Positions 53,002 to 61,060 of a DNA stretch of 64,000 bases are shown piece by piece. The notes below the pieces were generated by a model. That model saw only the letters and a program-made list of their open reading frames with translations. It was not told the origin of the DNA and did not search any database. The DNA comes from Spirochaetia bacterium. Lineage in GTDB: Bacteria > Spirochaetota > Spirochaetia > UBA9216. Both the position numbers and the translations under genes were made by a program. The number at the start of each line of letters is the position of its first letter. The stretch's first letter is position 1. The stretch covers positions 832,001-896,000 of the forward strand of contig OZ223269.1 in assembly GCA_965140585.1 (NCBI GenBank), written 5' to 3'.

Positions 53002-53994
53002 TCACACGAAGTATTTTCTAAGCATTTCTAACACTTTTTTGCGTATCTCTTCAAGTGGGAATTTACTCTTGAATCCTGCTGCTGTTTTATGACCGCCTCC
53101 TCCGAAAACCTGTGCAATAAAAGCAACATCAATATTACCTTTGGAACGAAGCGAACATCTGAGAATCCCCTCAAGATTTTCTTTAAAAAATATTGAAACC
53201 TTGATAGCCTCACTTTTTAAAGGCAGGTTTATCAGGGAGTCGGCCTCTTCATACATGGCACCGCTTTTAATAATGTCATCTTTGAGCATTGTTTGTATAG
53301 CAACATTGTGATCATAAAAGAACTCAAGAGTTGATAAAACTCTTGACTGAAGCATCAACGATGATATCGAATTGCTTTCATATAATTTTGAATATATGAA
53401 ATTAGGGTTAACCCCAAGACTTACACATCTTTCAGCAATAGAAAATGTTTTGGCTGTGGTTTTAGGATAGATAAAAGAACCTGTGTCATACACGATTCCC
53501 AGATAAAGTGCCTGTGCCATTGCAAGTGTAAGTTTCAGGTTCATGGCTTCAAAAAGCTCAAAAAGCATCTCGCATGTGGAAGAGGCTTCATTTTCAATAT
53601 GATTGGCTGATAAAACAGCATCACCGCCTTCATGATGATCAAAAATGAAAAAATCCTTAACTTTCGTGAGGATACAATCCTTTACAGCTCCGATATTATT
53701 AATATCGTTTGTATCAAGAATAATTAGAACCCAGTCTTTTATATCTTCAGGAAGAACGGCCTCATTGTTAAGAAGCTGAACTTCATCATCTGTATCGAGA
53801 AATCGGTATTTTTCTCCCATTGGATCGGCATTGAATATGATTGTTTGTTTACCTAAAGACCTGAGCGCATGACTGGCAGCTATTTCACTGCCTATTGCAT
53901 CTCCGTCTGGAGTTTCATGAGCGGTTAGTATAAATTTACTGTTGCTTTCGATAAAATCAATTATTGCCTGAAATCTCATTGCGTCTTTTTTCAT
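53002..53994 (-). CDS. nrnA: DHH/DHHA1 phosphoesterase (NrnA/Pde2-like)
   Basis: HETPDGDAIGS, FDHH, YDTGSF, CSLRS, GGGGHKTAAG. Confidence 0.9.
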   Translation of the reverse strand: MKKDAMRFQAIIDFIESNSKFILTAHETPDGDAIGSEIAASHALRSLGKQTIIFNADPMGEKYRFLDTDDEVQLLNNEAVLPEDIKDWVLIILDTNDINNIGAVKDCILTKVKDFFIFDHHEGGDAVLSANHIENEASSTCEMLFELFEAMNLKLTLAMAQALYLGIVYDTGSFIYPKTTAKTFSIAERCVSLGVNPNFIYSKLYESNSISSLMLQSRVLSTLEFFYDHNVAIQTMLKDDIIKSGAMYEEADSLINLPLKSEAIKVSIFFKENLEGILRCSLRSKGNIDVAFIAQVFGGGGHKTAAGFKSKFPLEEIRKKVLEMLRKYFV

Positions 53995-55120
53995 CCTTTT
54001 CAGCCGAAGCCCTGATGATATAATTTCTTATAATAATAAATGCTGCTACTGCTGCAGCAATAACTGCCAGAATTATTATAATTATAAGAAATTTTGAAGA
54101 AGTTTTGCTTCCATCTGCGGAATTATTTTGAATATTTTCACTGCTTTCCGTTGAAAATTTACCATTGTTTACTTCAATCTGATAATCAAAGACGGCAGGA
54201 ATAAATGGAGTATCACCAGAAAAGTTGAAGAGAAAAGAACCTGAATGTCTTCCGGGGGATAGTTCACTTGATAATTTAAGCGGTATTTTAACCTCTACAG
54301 AGGTTTCAGCTGGAATTTTTATTTCATAGGGTTCATCAAGAACTTCGTAGTTACTGCCCCGTTCCTGGTACAGTATTCTGCTGATCACCACAGTACGTTC
54401 ATCGCTGTATCCGTCACTCTCCAGACTGATATATATACTGTCATCTGAGACAGTAAAACCGGATGAAAGAATCCGTCCCAGGGTATCTTCTGCCGGAGTG
54501 GTTTCCGGAACATTACTGTTAAAATCAATTTCTTCATATGTGGTTAACAGCTCCTTTGAAAGCTCTTCAACAGCTGATTCACTGCCAACACCAAGAAGGA
54601 TGATTTTCCAGCCTTTTTTCTGAATAGTTTTTGTGTTTTCGAGAAAGTTATGATTAAAAGATCCGTCGGGGGAGTAGTATGGACTGTTTTCAGGAGCTTC
54701 CTGCTTTCCGTCTGTCAATAAAATAAGGTATTGTCTGCTGTTTTCAGTTTTATAAGCAGAAAGAGAATTTTCAAGGCTGTCCAAAGCATTCCCTATATCT
54801 GTAAAACGGCCGTCAGCTTTAAGGTTATGTAGATCATTTGATATCTGTTCAAGCCCCTTGAAGGTAAGTGTTTTATTAAAAACAACATCAGCCTTGCCAT
54901 AGAATTCAATTACAGTGAGATGGTCTCCCTCAATAAGAAAATTATCAATGAAATTTTCTATAATATACGCACTGACATCTTTAATTTTTTCAACCATCGA
55001 CTTGCTTTTATCAACAACAAGAAACATATCAATATTCTCAGTCCTTTTATCAGCATAGAGTGAGGCAGTGAGACCAGAAAATATTAATATAAAAAGAAAG
55101 AACTTGTATTTTTTAATCAT
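53957..55120 (-). CDS. VWA-domain membrane protein (TP0750-like)
   Basis: Signal peptide, MIDAS VDKSKSM, FTDIGNAL, LLTDG; C-terminal TM. Confidence 0.88.
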   Translation of the reverse strand: MIKKYKFFLFILIFSGLTASLYADKRTENIDMFLVVDKSKSMVEKIKDVSAYIIENFIDNFLIEGDHLTVIEFYGKADVVFNKTLTFKGLEQISNDLHNLKADGRFTDIGNALDSLENSLSAYKTENSRQYLILLTDGKQEAPENSPYYSPDGSFNHNFLENTKTIQKKGWKIILLGVGSESAVEELSKELLTTYEEIDFNSNVPETTPAEDTLGRILSSGFTVSDDSIYISLESDGYSDERTVVISRILYQERGSNYEVLDEPYEIKIPAETSVEVKIPLKLSSELSPGRHSGSFLFNFSGDTPFIPAVFDYQIEVNNGKFSTESSENIQNNSADGSKTSSKFLIIIIILAVIAAAVAAFIIIRNYIIRASAEKDEKRRNEISGNN

Positions 55121-55267: not shown

Positions 55268-57331
55268 ATGGGAAGCATAGATCTACCTAAAAGTCCAATG
55301 GTATTCCATCCTGAAAAGAGGAGTGCGGTGGGCTCCAGGAACTCTCTCGCTCAGGAAAGCAGGGACCAGCAGGCAGAAGTAGAAAGACTGCTCGAAGAAG
55401 AAGTAGATAAAGTCGTTAACCATATCAATGCCAAACTACCTGAAGACGTCCTCTCTAAATTGGATGTCATGGGTGGCTTAAAAGAGAAAGTTTATAACTA
55501 TTTCAACCAGAACTACCAGAATATGTTCAACCGTTACATAGTTACAACTGAAGATGAAATGGTTAAAAAGGTAAGAAACTTCATTGATAAAGAAGAAATG
55601 AAAGTTCTTACCAGGTACACCCCCAAAGAAATAGCAGCGCTGCTTGAAGAAGTAGGCGGTATGGACAGATTCAATACCGGTGAAATTGAGAAATCAATTG
55701 TTAATATGTATGGTCACCTTCAGGGGCATATACAGAGAGGTATGAATGATCTTGAAAACCTTACCAACTCACTCCTTAGACAGAAAACCGACGTTGGTGC
55801 TTTCATAAGAGGCGAGAATGCTTATTCGGTAGTTAAATGTTCATTCAAGGACAGTATCGAGAAACCAAAGACTGTATGCAACGTAAAGCTTTCAGTTAAC
55901 ATACTCGATTCCGAGCTTATAAGTCCTATTTTTCACTATCAGGCTACAGTTGAGTACTTAATCAAAGACCTTGTTTCAAAGCAGATTATTGATGCAATTG
56001 ACAAGGAAATTGAGAATCTTAAGGATGAAAGACTTGATAAGGGTCTTGAAGAACTTAATGACAGTGAAATCATCTTTCAGAAGATGGGTCGTGTAGAAAA
56101 TCATACCGCTGATGAAGTAAACAATGCAAAATCAAACAGGTATAAGTACATTGCCAAGAACATCATGGAAAAGGTTGAAGGCCTTAGAGCTGAGATTGAT
56201 CCTAATGAGTTCGATCCTCTGAACATCCGTGAAAATCTTAAGAAAATCATGGATATAGAAAATATCAGAAACAGAGGCTACAACACAGCAGTTAATTCAA
56301 TTACAAGTATTCTTGATACTTCAAAAATGGGTTATCAGTATATCGAGAACCTCAAAAATGCAAGAGAACTTGTGATTAGAGAGTATGAAGATACAGATGC
56401 AGCAATTCTTCCTGATGAAAGATATAACATCCGTCTCAAATACTACGACAATGCCCAGCTTATCGAAGAAAGAAAAGCTTATGATGTTCAGGTAAAATCT
56501 TTCGAGGTTGAAGTTGAACATGTATGGGATGTTCTTGAAATGGTTTACAGCGACGGTAAGAGATTCAAAGGTGTTGTTGATTTTAAAGATCTTTCCGACA
56601 GATACAAGAATAAAATAAAGAAGAACATCAAGGCAAAAACCGGTGATCCTCTCTACGAAGACATTGAAAAGAGCTGGGATGAAATATCTTTTGTAAGCGC
56701 AGCTGAAACTGAAGTTGAAAAAATGAACAGAACCTATGTTCTGGAAAAAGATAAACTTAAGAAAAAGCTTATTCTTATGAGAGACAAACTTCAGGATATG
56801 TACAGCTATAAGTACCCGATTCAGAGACGAGTACTTGAAGACAGACTTACTTTTCTCGAAGCTGAGTTCAATAAATTTGATTATCTTATCAATCCTTATC
56901 ATATTCAGCCAGGACTTCTTCTTGATGTTGATATTACTTCAATTAAAAGAAAGAAAGCTACTTTGGACGGTATGGCAAATGTTCTTAATGAATTCCTTCA
57001 TGGTGTTTCCAAAGGGTTCCAGGATGCGGCATTTGCAGCGTTCTCAAGAAGACGTTCTACTGTAAGAGAAGATATTGATATGAGTTTTGCTTCTGATCTT
57101 GCTGAAGATGATATGCTTAAGCAGAAATCTTTAGGTGAATCATATCTTGATATGCTTAATTCACCGGATGACAGTCCTGCACTGGCCGACACTACAATCA
57201 AAACAAAGCCTAAGGCTCCTGCTAAAAAGGCTGCACCGAAAACTAAAGCCAAGTCTAAGGGTGTTGTTGACAACGACAAGACTAAAACAAGGCGGGGCAG
57301 ACCAAGAAGATCAAATCTGGATACAATCTAA
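55268..57331 (+). CDS. cfpA: Cytoplasmic filament protein CfpA
   Basis: N-terminus [47 protein letters not shown] and FSRRRSTVR, typical of treponemal CfpA; coiled-coil rich. Confidence 0.93.
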
Positions 57332-57332
57332 C

Positions 57333-57370
57333 AAAAAATGCAGCCCCTCAATTTTTGAGGGGCATTTTTT
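57333..57370 (+). terminator. Rho-independent terminator after cfpA
   Basis: GCCCCTCAA-ttt-TTGAGGGGC followed by ATTTTTT. Confidence 0.8.
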
Positions 57371-57384
57371 ACCGAGGGAACATA

Positions 57385-58407
57385 ATGAACGATACTTTAC
57401 GCGTCTATGATCATCTGTCTGACAGGAATGGTTTTAATAATGCATTAATTCATTTTCAGTCTGTAATGGGTATTATCGGCGATTTTGAAGATGGATACAA
57501 TCTGGCTGATATATTGAATGATCTTGTGAATGAGAAGGAAATTAAGCAGGATCAGATGCCGTCGATAGTGAGTGCACTTCTCGTTGATAAATATTCCTAC
57601 AACTTTAAATCCGGTAATTTTATAAACAGTTTAATTGATTTTGAATATATCGCTTCTTCATTGGAGAAGCTTAAATCCTATGATTTACTGATTTCTTATA
57701 TCCACCCGGAGCTTGGATATAATGTGATAAATCCTAAGAATCCTGATAGCTGGAAAAATGTCTCAGAGTTTAGAAAAAATGAATATTTCACAGTGTATGC
57801 CGGCAAATTCACTGATGACATGACCAACTCTAAAGAGGCTGAAATGTTAATTCAGAAGGTTTTTGACCTTTTTGAGGGCAAAAAACTTAAACTTCCTGAA
57901 AATCTATTAAAAGGTAAGTATAAGTTTAAGACTCTTTCAGAGGAACCGGAGAAGAAGGCTGCACCGAAGAAAGTAGCCAAGAATCCGGTTAAAAAGACTT
58001 CAGCTTCCCAAAAAGCCGAAACATCATATCAGGATGAAGAACATGAAGAGGTCGCAGCCAGCGGACCTGTGAATACTTCAAAAATGACACCTTTATATTC
58101 AGTTCCGGTAACCAATGAACTCTTTCATAATGGTAATGTCGAAGCCTGGAAAAGGATAATTCAAAGTTTTAAAGTTAAAAACCCAGACCTCGAAGTATAT
58201 ATATTTTATGATGGTGAAAGAATTCAGAATATTGCATCATTGTTTAAATGGGGTAAAGTTAAACATGGAAGTGCTATTCTGTTTGCTGTAGCAGGTGAAA
58301 ATATTCAGGATGTTGCAAAACTTCAGAAATATTTAAAACAGGGAGCGAGCCCTCAGTTTGAAGCCTTCTTAAGGTTTCCGGTTAATACTGTTTTAAATCT
58401 CTTCTAA
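57385..58407 (+). CDS. Hypothetical protein with K/A/P-rich linker and C-terminal HPr-like domain
   Basis: Start moved to ATG 57385 (GAGGG RBS); C-terminal VPVTNELFHNG..EVYIFYDGERI..GKVKHGSAILFAVAGE resembles HPr. Confidence 0.75.
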   Translation: MNDTLRVYDHLSDRNGFNNALIHFQSVMGIIGDFEDGYNLADILNDLVNEKEIKQDQMPSIVSALLVDKYSYNFKSGNFINSLIDFEYIASSLEKLKSYDLLISYIHPELGYNVINPKNPDSWKNVSEFRKNEYFTVYAGKFTDDMTNSKEAEMLIQKVFDLFEGKKLKLPENLLKGKYKFKTLSEEPEKKAAPKKVAKNPVKKTSASQKAETSYQDEEHEEVAASGPVNTSKMTPLYSVPVTNELFHNGNVEAWKRIIQSFKVKNPDLEVYIFYDGERIQNIASLFKWGKVKHGSAILFAVAGENIQDVAKLQKYLKQGASPQFEAFLRFPVNTVLNLF

Positions 58408-58423
58408 TAATAAGGGTTATTTC

Positions 58424-61060
58424 ATGGATATCAAATCGAATATATATTTTATCAGTAAGAATAAATCATCAAAAAACGCACCTGATCAGAATAAGATAGG
58501 AATCAGAGGGCAGCAGACTTATGACCTCATTTCTATGGGAATGCCTGTAGTTCCCGGTGTAATACTCGGAACAGAAATAACTTCAAATCTTGATGATGTT
58601 GATGCAGTTATTGATGCTCTTAATCCCTTTTTTAATGATTATACAAAAGAAAGCGGTAAAACCTTCAATAGTGATAAAAATCCGATGCTTCTTAAACTGG
58701 TTATCAGTTCAAATCTTGCTATAGCAAGGTATCCTGTCCTTCATAATTTCGGACTTGCGGATAACACGTTTGAAGGCTTCAGTGAGTTTGTAGGTAAAGA
58801 TTTCGCATATCAGGAAATTCTTTTTATGCTCAACGGTATTTACGCTATTGAAGAAAGAATTGCTGAACTTAATGAAGATACTAAACTTGCTAATAAATAT
58901 CATCAGTACATAAAGGAAACCGGACGTTTTCTTAGTAAGAACATGAAGGCTGATGAATGTAAGAAATATCTTGAACAGAAAAAGAAAGAACTTCCTGAAG
59001 AGCTTTTCAGTACCGCCAGGACTCAGCTTGCAGCAGTTTTAAAACGTATAAGCTACTTGATTAAACTGGAAGACAGTGAAAATACCGGTGTTGCAGTTCT
59101 TATTCAGCCTATGGTTTACGGAAACTATGGTAAAGACAGCTATTCAGGATATTTCACTACAAGAAATACAATTACCGGGAATGGTGTTCTCGAAGGTGAA
59201 TATTTTACAAATAAATTTAATTCACCGGAATCAAGCGGAAAATCGATCAAAAATATTGATAAAAAATACCTTAAACAGTTTGAAGATATAGCCTTAAAAC
59301 TTGAAACTACATATCTTGATATCAGGAAAATTGGTTTTACTATTGAAAACGGAAGACTGTCGCTAATAAATCAAAATCCGATCAGTGAAAAATCAACCAG
59401 GGCTGATATTCAGCTTCTTCTGGACCTTAAAAATAAAAAACTTATAAATGATACTCAGGTTATTAATGCAATAAAACCTTCTGAACTAAATGAGCTTCTG
59501 CACCCGGTTATAGATCTTGATTCGGTAAAATCCATGCCGAAGGTAGAAGGCGGTATTTCTGGTGCTCCCGGCGCCGCAGTCGGAAGGGTCTTCTTTTCTA
59601 CTGAGGGACTTATTGAAGAGTATAAAACTTCAAGAATGAATGATATTGATGACAGATTGATTTTGTGTCTTACATCCAGTTTTGCAGAAGATGTAAAGGC
59701 AATAGAAATTGCTACCGGCGTACTTTCTTCCGAAGGCGGCTATTCGGCTCATGCTTCAGTAGTTGCAAGACAGTACGGTAAAGTATCGCTTGTTAATCCT
59801 GATATTAAAATTAGCGGTAAAAAGGCGACAATAGGCGGCAAGACTATTAAAGAAGGTGATTTCATAACTCTCAATGTTCCTGAATTTGATACCCCCTCAA
59901 TCGTATGGGGTAAAGCTCAGCTTATAAAACCGGATCCTGCCAAGAACGGTCTGATAGATTTCCTTAAAATTGTGAAAGAAAATATAAAAGGATTTGATAT
60001 CCGCGCAAACTGTGATAAGGCTGCAGATGCAAAACTTGCTCTTGCATTCGGTGCGGACGGAATCGGGTTATGCAGAACAGAGCATATGTTTTTCGATGAA
60101 AAACGTATCAATGTGTTTCGTGAAATGATTTTTGCCGAGACCTCTGAAGAGAGAGCAAAAGTTCTTAAAAAACTTAAACAGATGCAGAAGAAGGACTTTC
60201 AGGATCTGTTTAAGGTAATGAACGGAAAGGAAATTAATATCCGCCTTCTTGATGCACCTCTGCATGAATTTCTACCCCATAATACTGCTGAGGTAAAAGC
60301 ATTTCTCGATTACCTTAAAACTTCCGGGACGAAAATTACTGAAAAACAGCTTAGGGAAAAATCAGAAAATTTAAAAGAATTCAATCCCATGCTTGGTCAC
60401 AGAGGATGCAGAATAGCAATCAGTTATCCGGAAATTTATCAGATGCAGATCGAATCAATCTTTGAGGCTGCTTACGCTGTTAAATCAAAAGGTGTAGATG
60501 TAAAACCTGAAATAATGATACCGCTGATTATGAATGAAACTGAGCTTAAAATGATTCTTTACGGAAAAAAAATCGAGGGTTCTCATTATAAAGGGCTTGT
60601 TGAAATAGAGCAGAACGTACGTGAACGGCTGAAAGTAAAACCGGTTGATTATAAAGTCGGAACAATGATTGAACTTCCTGCAGCGGCTCTGTCTGCTGAT
60701 AATATTGCAAGATATGCACAATTTTTCTCTTTCGGCACCAATGATCTTACACAGACAACATTAGGTCTCTCAAGAGATGATTTTACTTCATTTATGCCTG
60801 ACTATACACTTTACGATATTATGAGCGGTAATCCTTTCAGGACACTGGAACGGCCTGTAAAAGAACTTATTGCTACCGCCGTTCAGCGGGGAACTATAAC
60901 AAGGCCTGACCTTAAGAAGGGACTTTGCGGAGAACATGGAGCAGCACCCGAGAATATTGAGTTCTGTATTGAAAACGGACTTGATTATGTATCATGTTCA
61001 ACCTATTCAGTACCTATTGCTGCTCTTGCAACGGCTCAGGCGCTGCTTAAGACGAATTAG
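58424..61060 (+). CDS. PPDK-like PEP-utilising protein with degenerate nucleotide-binding domain
   Basis: GGYSAHASVVAR phospho-His domain; GIGLCRTEHMF, EFNPMLGHRGCR, FSFGTNDLTQ, GLCGEHG intact; ATP-grasp motifs altered. Confidence 0.9.
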   Translation: MDIKSNIYFISKNKSSKNAPDQNKIGIRGQQTYDLISMGMPVVPGVILGTEITSNLDDVDAVIDALNPFFNDYTKESGKTFNSDKNPMLLKLVISSNLAIARYPVLHNFGLADNTFEGFSEFVGKDFAYQEILFMLNGIYAIEERIAELNEDTKLANKYHQYIKETGRFLSKNMKADECKKYLEQKKKELPEELFSTARTQLAAVLKRISYLIKLEDSENTGVAVLIQPMVYGNYGKDSYSGYFTTRNTITGNGVLEGEYFTNKFNSPESSGKSIKNIDKKYLKQFEDIALKLETTYLDIRKIGFTIENGRLSLINQNPISEKSTRADIQLLLDLKNKKLINDTQVINAIKPSELNELLHPVIDLDSVKSMPKVEGGISGAPGAAVGRVFFSTEGLIEEYKTSRMNDIDDRLILCLTSSFAEDVKAIEIATGVLSSEGGYSAHASVVARQYGKVSLVNPDIKISGKKATIGGKTIKEGDFITLNVPEFDTPSIVWGKAQLIKPDPAKNGLIDFLKIVKENIKGFDIRANCDKAADAKLALAFGADGIGLCRTEHMFFDEKRINVFREMIFAETSEERAKVLKKLKQMQKKDFQDLFKVMNGKEINIRLLDAPLHEFLPHNTAEVKAFLDYLKTSGTKITEKQLREKSENLKEFNPMLGHRGCRIAISYPEIYQMQIESIFEAAYAVKSKGVDVKPEIMIPLIMNETELKMILYGKKIEGSHYKGLVEIEQNVRERLKVKPVDYKVGTMIELPAAALSADNIARYAQFFSFGTNDLTQTTLGLSRDDFTSFMPDYTLYDIMSGNPFRTLERPVKELIATAVQRGTITRPDLKKGLCGEHGAAPENIEFCIENGLDYVSCSTYSVPIAALATAQALLKTN

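Follow-up and report, generated by a model that had tools for sequence, protein, structure and literature searches.

A predicted tandem HPr-fold protein encoded between cfpA and a PPDK-like gene hints at a link between central metabolism and the spirochaete cytoskeleton

Filaments of the cytoplasmic filament protein CfpA are a hallmark of treponemes and their relatives. What, then, is the product of the gene that stands directly behind cfpA in the genome of a Spirochaetia bacterium of the UBA9216 lineage? The gene lies on the plus strand at 57385..58407 of the 64,000-nucleotide stretch analyzed here (contig OZ223269.1, positions 832,001 to 896,000; hereafter the window) and encodes a protein of 340 amino acids. 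The initial annotation, made from the sequence alone, had proposed a hidden, divergent domain similar to HPr, the phosphocarrier protein of the phosphoenolpyruvate (PEP)-dependent phosphotransferase system (PTS), at the C-terminus of this hypothetical protein, and this interpretation is partly supported by the present analysis. Two HPr-like folds are predicted in the 340-aa protein, and we see about an even chance that it is a spirochaete-specific HPr-fold adaptor of a conserved module made up of cfpA, this gene and a gene for a protein related to pyruvate phosphate dikinase (PPDK).

The interval 58093-58344 of the plus strand, from which the HPr-like domain had been read, translates exactly to the peptide quoted for it and lies inside an open reading frame with two candidate starts, TTG 57355 and ATG 57385, and a stop ending at 58407. 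The ATG is the likely start and the TTG is disfavoured, because an identical database protein of 340 residues (P0002) begins at the ATG and because a terminator-like hairpin overlaps the TTG; residues are numbered here from ATG 57385.

The fold of the protein is best seen in the predicted structures. A full-length AlphaFold2 (AF2) model based on 23 sequences reached a predicted local distance difference test score (pLDDT) of 74, with both folded parts confident. The C-terminal part, residues 233-340 (58081..58404, +), which includes 58093-58344, was modelled with 43 sequences, stand-alone forms among them, at a pLDDT of 93.7 and a predicted template modelling score (pTM) of 0.87. Its predicted strands (domain residues 6-9, 38-43, 46-48 and 65-71) and helices (17-33, 53-56, 78-88 and 91-96) follow the order beta-alpha-beta-beta-alpha-beta-alpha as in HPr, plus one short extra helix. 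A Foldseek search of the PDB with this domain model gave HPr or Crh at all of ranks 1-31 (E 0.065-0.38, none at E<=0.001; probability up to 0.99; TM 0.41-0.63 on the target). HPr chains were also the top 4 of 48,161 in a second structure-search program, and in a further structure ranking 30 different HPr/Crh entries took ranks 1-30, above every other protein, with collinear, whole-chain alignments covering 78-84 of 83-89 residues. The HPr-like fold put forward by the initial annotation is therefore backed at the level of predicted structure, HPr and Crh chains being the best matches for the domain model.

The structure search likewise points to HPr for a first fold at residues 72-166 (57598..57882, +), which carries the family motif Y.HPELG..INPKN. 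The two predicted folds are joined by a linker at about residues 181-232 (57925..58080, +), rich in charged residues, Ala and Pro. That this linker is disordered, as had been suggested, is borne out by a pLDDT below 50 at residues 185-230 of the full-length model and by its variable length and composition among 23 homologues. Ahead of the first fold lies an N-terminal region of three helices at residues 14-69 (57424..57591, +; H14-35, H40-49 and H55-69 by DSSP on the full-length model, pLDDT 69-92), for which no fold match was found among those listed.

The codon at 58126..58128 (+) specifies His248. In the DSSP assignment of the domain model this residue (domain residue 16) directly precedes helix 17-33; in HPr, His15 caps helix A, residues 16-27. 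The proposed equivalence with His15 is supported by this location in the predicted structure and by the pairing of the two residues in the non-significant profile alignment described below. His248 was present in 60/60 other genomes of a pattern-independent sample based on a hidden Markov model (HMM), and the motif NE.FHNG around it, the conservation of which had been named as a check in the form NELFHNG, was invariant in the same sample. Altogether, 26 of the 108 domain positions were invariant, falling into two blocks, 242-255 (V..NE.FHNGNVEAW) and 286-293 (LF.WGKVK), and the only invariant histidine was the one at the His15-equivalent site. We take the first block to represent the active-centre loop and the start of helix A, and the second the helix B region, together presumably the face that HPr offers to Enzyme I and other partners.

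His248 was also kept in all seven deeply divergent loci with the order cfpA, gene, PPDK-like gene. An equivalent was found in 0/20 readable stand-alone forms of the domain, in which N251, E253, A254 and W255 are kept. The seven divergent loci (L146-L152, of metagenomic origin, with a GC content of 0.43-0.50) have the N-terminal motifs HPELG and INPKN largely replaced and the C-terminal TNE(L/F)FHYGNVEAW kept, and their PPDK-like gene has further N-domain deletions. The loci of the stand-alone homologues (L124-L145) are on metagenome contigs with a GC content of 0.49-0.73 and encode His-less proteins of 110-130 aa; neighbouring genes are, in 7 loci, an AICARFT-only PurH-like gene and, in 3 of 4 tested, one for a methyltransferase of the UbiE/COQ5 type, and the nearest ESM Atlas cluster is mostly from Myxococcota. 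These neighbourhoods were considered as a functional clue and set aside, the PurH-like and methyltransferase context being uninformative on filaments or PEP.

Among the genomic companions of cfpA this gene is the most consistent one, and its linkage to the PPDK-like gene is even tighter. The upstream neighbour in the window (55268..57331, +) is a clear cfpA (NF040882, cfpA_ASD), the product scoring 1187.9 bits against a cut-off of 500 and covering profile positions 1-605 of 605. In a phylum sample of 151 genomes, with adjacency counted from coordinates, 61 genomes have the 340-aa gene, 60 of these also have CfpA, and 90 genomes have neither. In the sole genome with the gene and without CfpA (G048), about 60 nt separate the gene from the end of a contig. 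Directly upstream and on the same strand, cfpA occurs in 47 of the 61 genomes; it is elsewhere in 11 (six of family f14, four of family f41, and G010), and three cases are at contig ends. The PPDK-like gene directly follows in 55 of the 61. Among the non-adjacent cases, the four f41 genomes have it on a different contig and G140 was left uncalled; in G105 (80% complete) no PPDK-like gene was found at E<=1e-50. In all five genomes retrieved in which the gene is parted from cfpA (4 of the 6 of f14, and G010), it still lies 20-45 nt upstream of the PPDK-like gene. In one genome (G005), three full-length paralogues of CfpA exceed the NF040882 cut-off (C97:23675-25486, C69:22694-24508 and C102:30441-32243), only the first of which adjoins the gene.

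The 80 closest public loci were chosen by peptide patterns that include the histidine. Among these, the order of a von Willebrand factor A (VWA) gene on the minus strand, cfpA, the gene and the PPDK-like gene is widespread, with the PPDK-like gene directly downstream in 79 (the other is at a contig end) and cfpA upstream in 77 (two contig ends; none within 7 kb in L100), and no linkage to PTS genes was seen. L100 (L100:7001-10654) is the only one of the 80 in which the gene and the PPDK-like gene are found with cfpA absent from the 7 kb upstream. The same order recurs in the seven divergent metagenome loci, where CfpA is about 40%, the 340-aa protein 28-34% and the PPDK-like protein 23-36% identical. 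In Treponema denticola, TDE0842-0844 (cfpA, a conserved hypothetical gene and PPDK) are listed as repressed together in co-culture (PMC3914990, Table 5). In the envelope fraction of this species, bands 1 and 3 are assigned to TDE0844 (PPDK) and TDE0842 (CfpA), respectively (PMC3931704, Table 2), CfpA being placed in this fraction on the ground that the filaments anchor to the inner membrane (PMC3931704). Loss of CfpA in T. denticola is described as disturbing chromosome structure and cell division (PMC3398590).

What kind of enzyme does the tightly linked neighbour encode? The PPDK-like gene (58424..61060, +) starts 16 nt downstream of the 340-aa gene, and its catalytic His443 is encoded at 59750-59752. 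The protein matches Pfam PEP-utilizers_C at 2.6e-68, PPDK_N with 23.1 bits (cut-off 27), and TIGR01828 with 638.5 bits, the equivalog cut-off of 843.45 not being reached. Genomes with the 340-aa gene carry two PPDK-type genes and those without it only the canonical type; a partial exception is G075, which lacks the 340-aa gene and has a partial, paralogue-like fragment. The adjacent copies are 38-55% identical to the PPDK-like protein of the window, and the second copies, at 35-40%, resemble the single copy of genomes without the gene; in the genome of the window the second, canonical PPDK is at G000:C4:362733-365375.

In an alignment of 22 paralogues and 14 spirochaete PPDKs of the canonical type, 129 N-domain columns were invariant throughout the canonical enzymes; 12 of them were kept and 69 lost in >=90% of paralogues, and of 102 such columns in the PEP/pyruvate domain 67 were kept and 10 lost. 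GGKG, SVRSGA..SMPGMM, NAQGEDVVAGIRTP and MQD.EFT...LQ.R were replaced or deleted in all 22 paralogues, which keep the His motif GG.(S/A)(A/S)H and the VSC cysteine (His443 and Cys858 in the window protein). In an alignment with Clostridium symbiosum PPDK, the numbering of which was fixed through His455 and the Ala that the 2dik chain has at position 337, Arg92 is replaced by Val, Asp321 by Lys, Glu323 by Gly and Arg337 by Pro; we take these four to be nucleotide or Mg ligands. Because of these kept and lost motifs, the PPDK-like protein looks able to exchange phosphate with PEP/pyruvate and not with AMP/PPi, at some risk from the divergent N-domain alignment. In seven genomes (G018, G032, G044, G056, G104, G119 and G126, of families f5, f19 and f27) the PPDK-like frame is 965-972 aa long and the tblastn match starts only at query residue 134-173, the late start in these long frames indicating a longer and more divergent N-terminal region.

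If the 340-aa protein is the adaptor of this module, it would dock on the PPDK-like protein, which is related to Enzyme I, through one face of its C-terminal domain, formed by the His248 loop, the start of helix 1 and the helix-2 region, and its N-terminal half would tie the pair to the CfpA filament. A prediction of the complex between the 878-aa PPDK-like protein and the 108-aa C-terminal domain scored 0.00 and 0.03 against a mark of 0.32 and speaks neither for nor against binding. The PPDK-like enzyme would probably take phosphate from PEP onto its own His443, from which it might pass to His248 in a relay resembling that of Enzyme I and HPr. His248 is a candidate acceptor because the enzyme, judged by its motifs, is probably still charged by PEP and lacks a nucleotide site to which the phosphate could be passed. 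Such a transfer of phosphate from PEP to His248 by way of His443 is plausible as a further step, to which we would give a chance of about a third. In its full form the proposal would make the PPDK-like protein an Enzyme-I-type PEP:protein phosphotransferase, evolved from PPDK by loss of the nucleotide site, that charges His248 of a CfpA-tethered protein, the relay reporting the PEP/pyruvate state to the cytoskeleton and thereby to chromosome segregation and division; we regard this as possible, if rather doubtful.

A number of results weigh against an HPr-fold adaptor acting with the PPDK-like protein, and the comparison at the sequence level provides several of them. The C-terminal domain had no match to PF00381, the HPr family, at E<=10, and PF00381 matched 0/43 members of the domain alignment. 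A six-frame scan of the same genome with PF00381 found two genuine HPr genes elsewhere and none at the studied locus. With a reference profile of 31 spirochaete HPr sequences, compared with the domain profiles by hhalign, the register proposed by eye in the initial annotation was reproduced: His248 pairs with His15 and the alignment is collinear through the last helix. The score was another matter, with P 0.1 for the 23-sequence profile and, for the 43-sequence profile, a local score of 14.7, P 0.047 and a probability of 1.1%, as against a top score of 14.2 among 34 decoys, profiles taken from the PPDK alignment. The N-terminal domain against HPr gave P 0.032-0.036 and a score of 15.6, which 3 of the 34 decoys reached. 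The alignment by eye is thus reproducible, but since the hhalign score is non-significant and the decoys come nearly equal to it, the resemblance in sequence does not by itself exceed chance, and for homology to PF00381 there is no evidence at this level. Nor did hhalign support an internal duplication, the N- and C-terminal domains aligning at P 0.092 in a non-equivalent register. An ESM Atlas feature search had a cluster named 'HPr domain-containing protein' at rank 3 (score 0.80), which is a lead at most.

The active centre differs as well. Arg17 and Pro18 are absent, as had been noted at the outset, H-N-G-N standing where HPr reads H-A-R-P, and this is invariant in 60/60 genomes; the claim that Ser46, the regulatory HprK/P site, is likewise replaced depends on a low-confidence part of the hhalign register, in which the position falls on Asn282, with Ser285 three residues further on. 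The histidine itself is not constant throughout the family, being lacking in 4 of 26 long-form representatives (P0198, P0208, P0212 and P0245) and in 10 of 11 stand-alone representatives. On the side of the putative partner, PPDK is not known to have the helical subdomain by which Enzyme I binds HPr, and a private phosphate donor is not required, since a true Enzyme I is present in 147/151 genomes. The three genes of the module are scattered in the four f41 genomes. A genome of 1.1 Mb from the same class (G102; C1:810752-816533) has cfpA, the gene and the PPDK-like gene, no canonical PPDK at E<=1e-50 and a weak Enzyme I match (2.6e-80); if it depends on PPDK activity, the paralogue may still function as an enzyme although the motifs are lost, and if the paralogue cannot use nucleotides, the PPDK step assumed in the metabolism of this organism needs re-examination. 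Finally, TDE0843 is not among the 16 major envelope proteins named in PMC3931704.

The main rival reading is that the protein is a purely structural accessory of the filament, either a bridging, spacing or anchoring part of the CfpA ribbon or a scaffold on which the abundant PPDK-like protein is parked, with the HPr-like folds acting as generic modules for protein binding and His248 serving as a contact or helix cap and never phosphorylated. It falls short of an even chance and still has to be taken seriously. Co-occurrence with CfpA in 60 of 61 genomes agrees with it, as does the extreme conservation of whole surface motifs, with 26 invariant positions reaching well beyond the histidine. Arg17, which aids phosphohistidine chemistry in HPr, is absent, and stand-alone homologues, as well as 4 of 26 long forms, do without the histidine. 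The T. denticola envelope fraction is reported to have both CfpA and the PPDK-like protein among its major proteins (PMC3931704), and a title by Izard et al. (2004), cited in the reference list of PMC3398590, speaks of 'novel bridging and anchoring components'. What a structural role leaves unexplained is why the gene stays with the PPDK-like gene and not with cfpA where the module breaks up, and why all sampled sequences of the module type, down to 28-34% overall identity, retain the histidine, which is lost where there is no PPDK-like neighbour.

It is also conceivable, although improbable, that the resemblance to HPr reflects a common two-layer alpha/beta arrangement, reached by convergence or through model bias and without functional meaning, in which case the domain would be a new fold family. 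Against this, the 30 HPr/Crh entries that outrank all others cover 78-84 of 83-89 residues, Foldseek agrees independently, the other HPr-like domain of the protein gives the same result, and the only invariant histidine falls at the His15-equivalent site. A true, very divergent PTS HPr that is charged by the ordinary Enzyme I and reports the PTS state to the filament is very improbable: the predicted HPr-like fold with its histidine in the right place and the presence of Enzyme I in 147/151 genomes of the phylum, including that of the window, would suit it, but the PF00381 signal is absent, the genome has two canonical HPr genes, one of them on the same strand as an Enzyme I gene and about 1.6 kb away from it, the H-A-R-P active centre is replaced by H-N-G-N, and no PTS linkage was seen in the 80 closest loci.

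The family to which the 340-aa protein belongs is large. At E<=0.001 the whole protein had 3216 homologues in a set of 5.8 billion proteins; the 120 listed were all labelled PF27497.1 by precomputed annotation and all 322-379 residues long, and those with a named source were hypothetical proteins of Spirochaetes metagenome-assembled genomes (MAGs). PF27497 is likewise the database family label of the window's protein. In the alignment of 23 members, the N-terminal 180 or so residues are moderately conserved, the charged linker is unalignable and of variable length, and the last 108 or so residues are almost invariant. The C-terminal domain alone found 125 proteins at E<=0.001 among 1.84 billion cluster representatives, including stand-alone proteins of 108-147 residues with 31-38% identity. 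The closest public contig, from a Spirochaetia bacterium MAG, is 91-100% identical across cfpA, the 340-aa gene and the PPDK-like gene. NCBIfam and Pfam scans of the whole protein gave nothing meaningful, and a PDB sequence search with it returned chance-level rows only (E 0.044 and above). A full-text literature search, beyond the reach of which lay the older subscription cfpA papers, found no description of the protein, its fold or PF27497, and the literature so searched identified no partner protein of CfpA.

Two further features of the locus deserve mention. A consensus scan found a terminator-like hairpin followed by a T-run between cfpA and the 340-aa gene (57343..57373, +; hairpin 57343-57363, with a 9-bp stem containing 6 G-C pairs) and none in the 16-nt gap between the 340-aa gene and the PPDK-like gene. 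Because a strong hairpin follows cfpA and none precedes the PPDK-like gene, its position suggests that cfpA transcription is partly uncoupled and that the two downstream genes are coupled. Divergent from cfpA lies the VWA gene (53957-55120, -), encoding a membrane-anchored protein (VWA_2, 9.9e-13) with a C-terminal hydrophobic segment. Of the 80 closest loci, 59 have a homologue at the corresponding position, many of the misses being at contig ends, and the protein could be a candidate filament anchor.

In sum, the gene may point to a hitherto undescribed connection of the cytoskeleton with central metabolism. Should the HPr-like domain of the proposed adaptor dock on the PPDK-like enzyme or be phosphorylated by it, this would be a second, independent origin of an Enzyme I/HPr-type pair and a direct metabolic input to a bacterial cytoskeleton, and the glycolytic role of the treponeme 'PPDK' would have to be re-examined, not least in the small-genome lineage that has only the paralogue. 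A relay would be a previously unrecognised one, and the gene annotated as PPDK in treponemes would then not encode an ordinary glycolytic PPDK. Should the role be only structural, the 340-aa protein would still be the first candidate accessory protein of the cytoplasmic filaments.

How do the two proteins compare with known systems? Like HPr (PtsH), the C-terminal part is a predicted beta-alpha-beta-beta-alpha-beta-alpha domain of about 85 residues, with best structure matches that span the whole HPr chain and a histidine before helix 1. Unlike HPr, it has no detectable sequence homology to that family, Arg17 and Pro18 are replaced and a Ser46 site is not evident; a single 340-aa protein carries the predicted fold in two copies, in fusion with a helical bundle and a disordered linker, and the gene is linked to a cytoskeletal gene and not to sugar permeases. 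HPr-fold proteins without His15, such as Crh of Bacillus subtilis, are known to act by binding only. Crh is a clear PF00381 member regulated at Ser46, whereas the 340-aa protein keeps the histidine and has no evident Ser46 site. The arrangement of the genes recalls the PTS, in which the order is ptsH-ptsI: the 340-aa gene directly precedes one that encodes a PEP-utilising enzyme possessing a phosphohistidine domain. That enzyme shares with Enzyme I the PEP-binding domain (TIGR01417, 98.3 bits, residues 651-864) and the catalytic histidine, but it derives from PPDK (TIGR01828, 638.5 bits) and has a degenerate ATP-grasp domain in place of the helical HPr-binding subdomain. Compared with canonical PPDK it lies below the TIGR01828 cut-off and has lost the nucleotide-domain motifs, whereas the three-domain layout, the length of about 875 residues and the end-to-end alignment with the C. 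symbiosum enzyme (1DIK/2DIK) are retained, together with the catalytic His, the Cys and GTNDLTQ.

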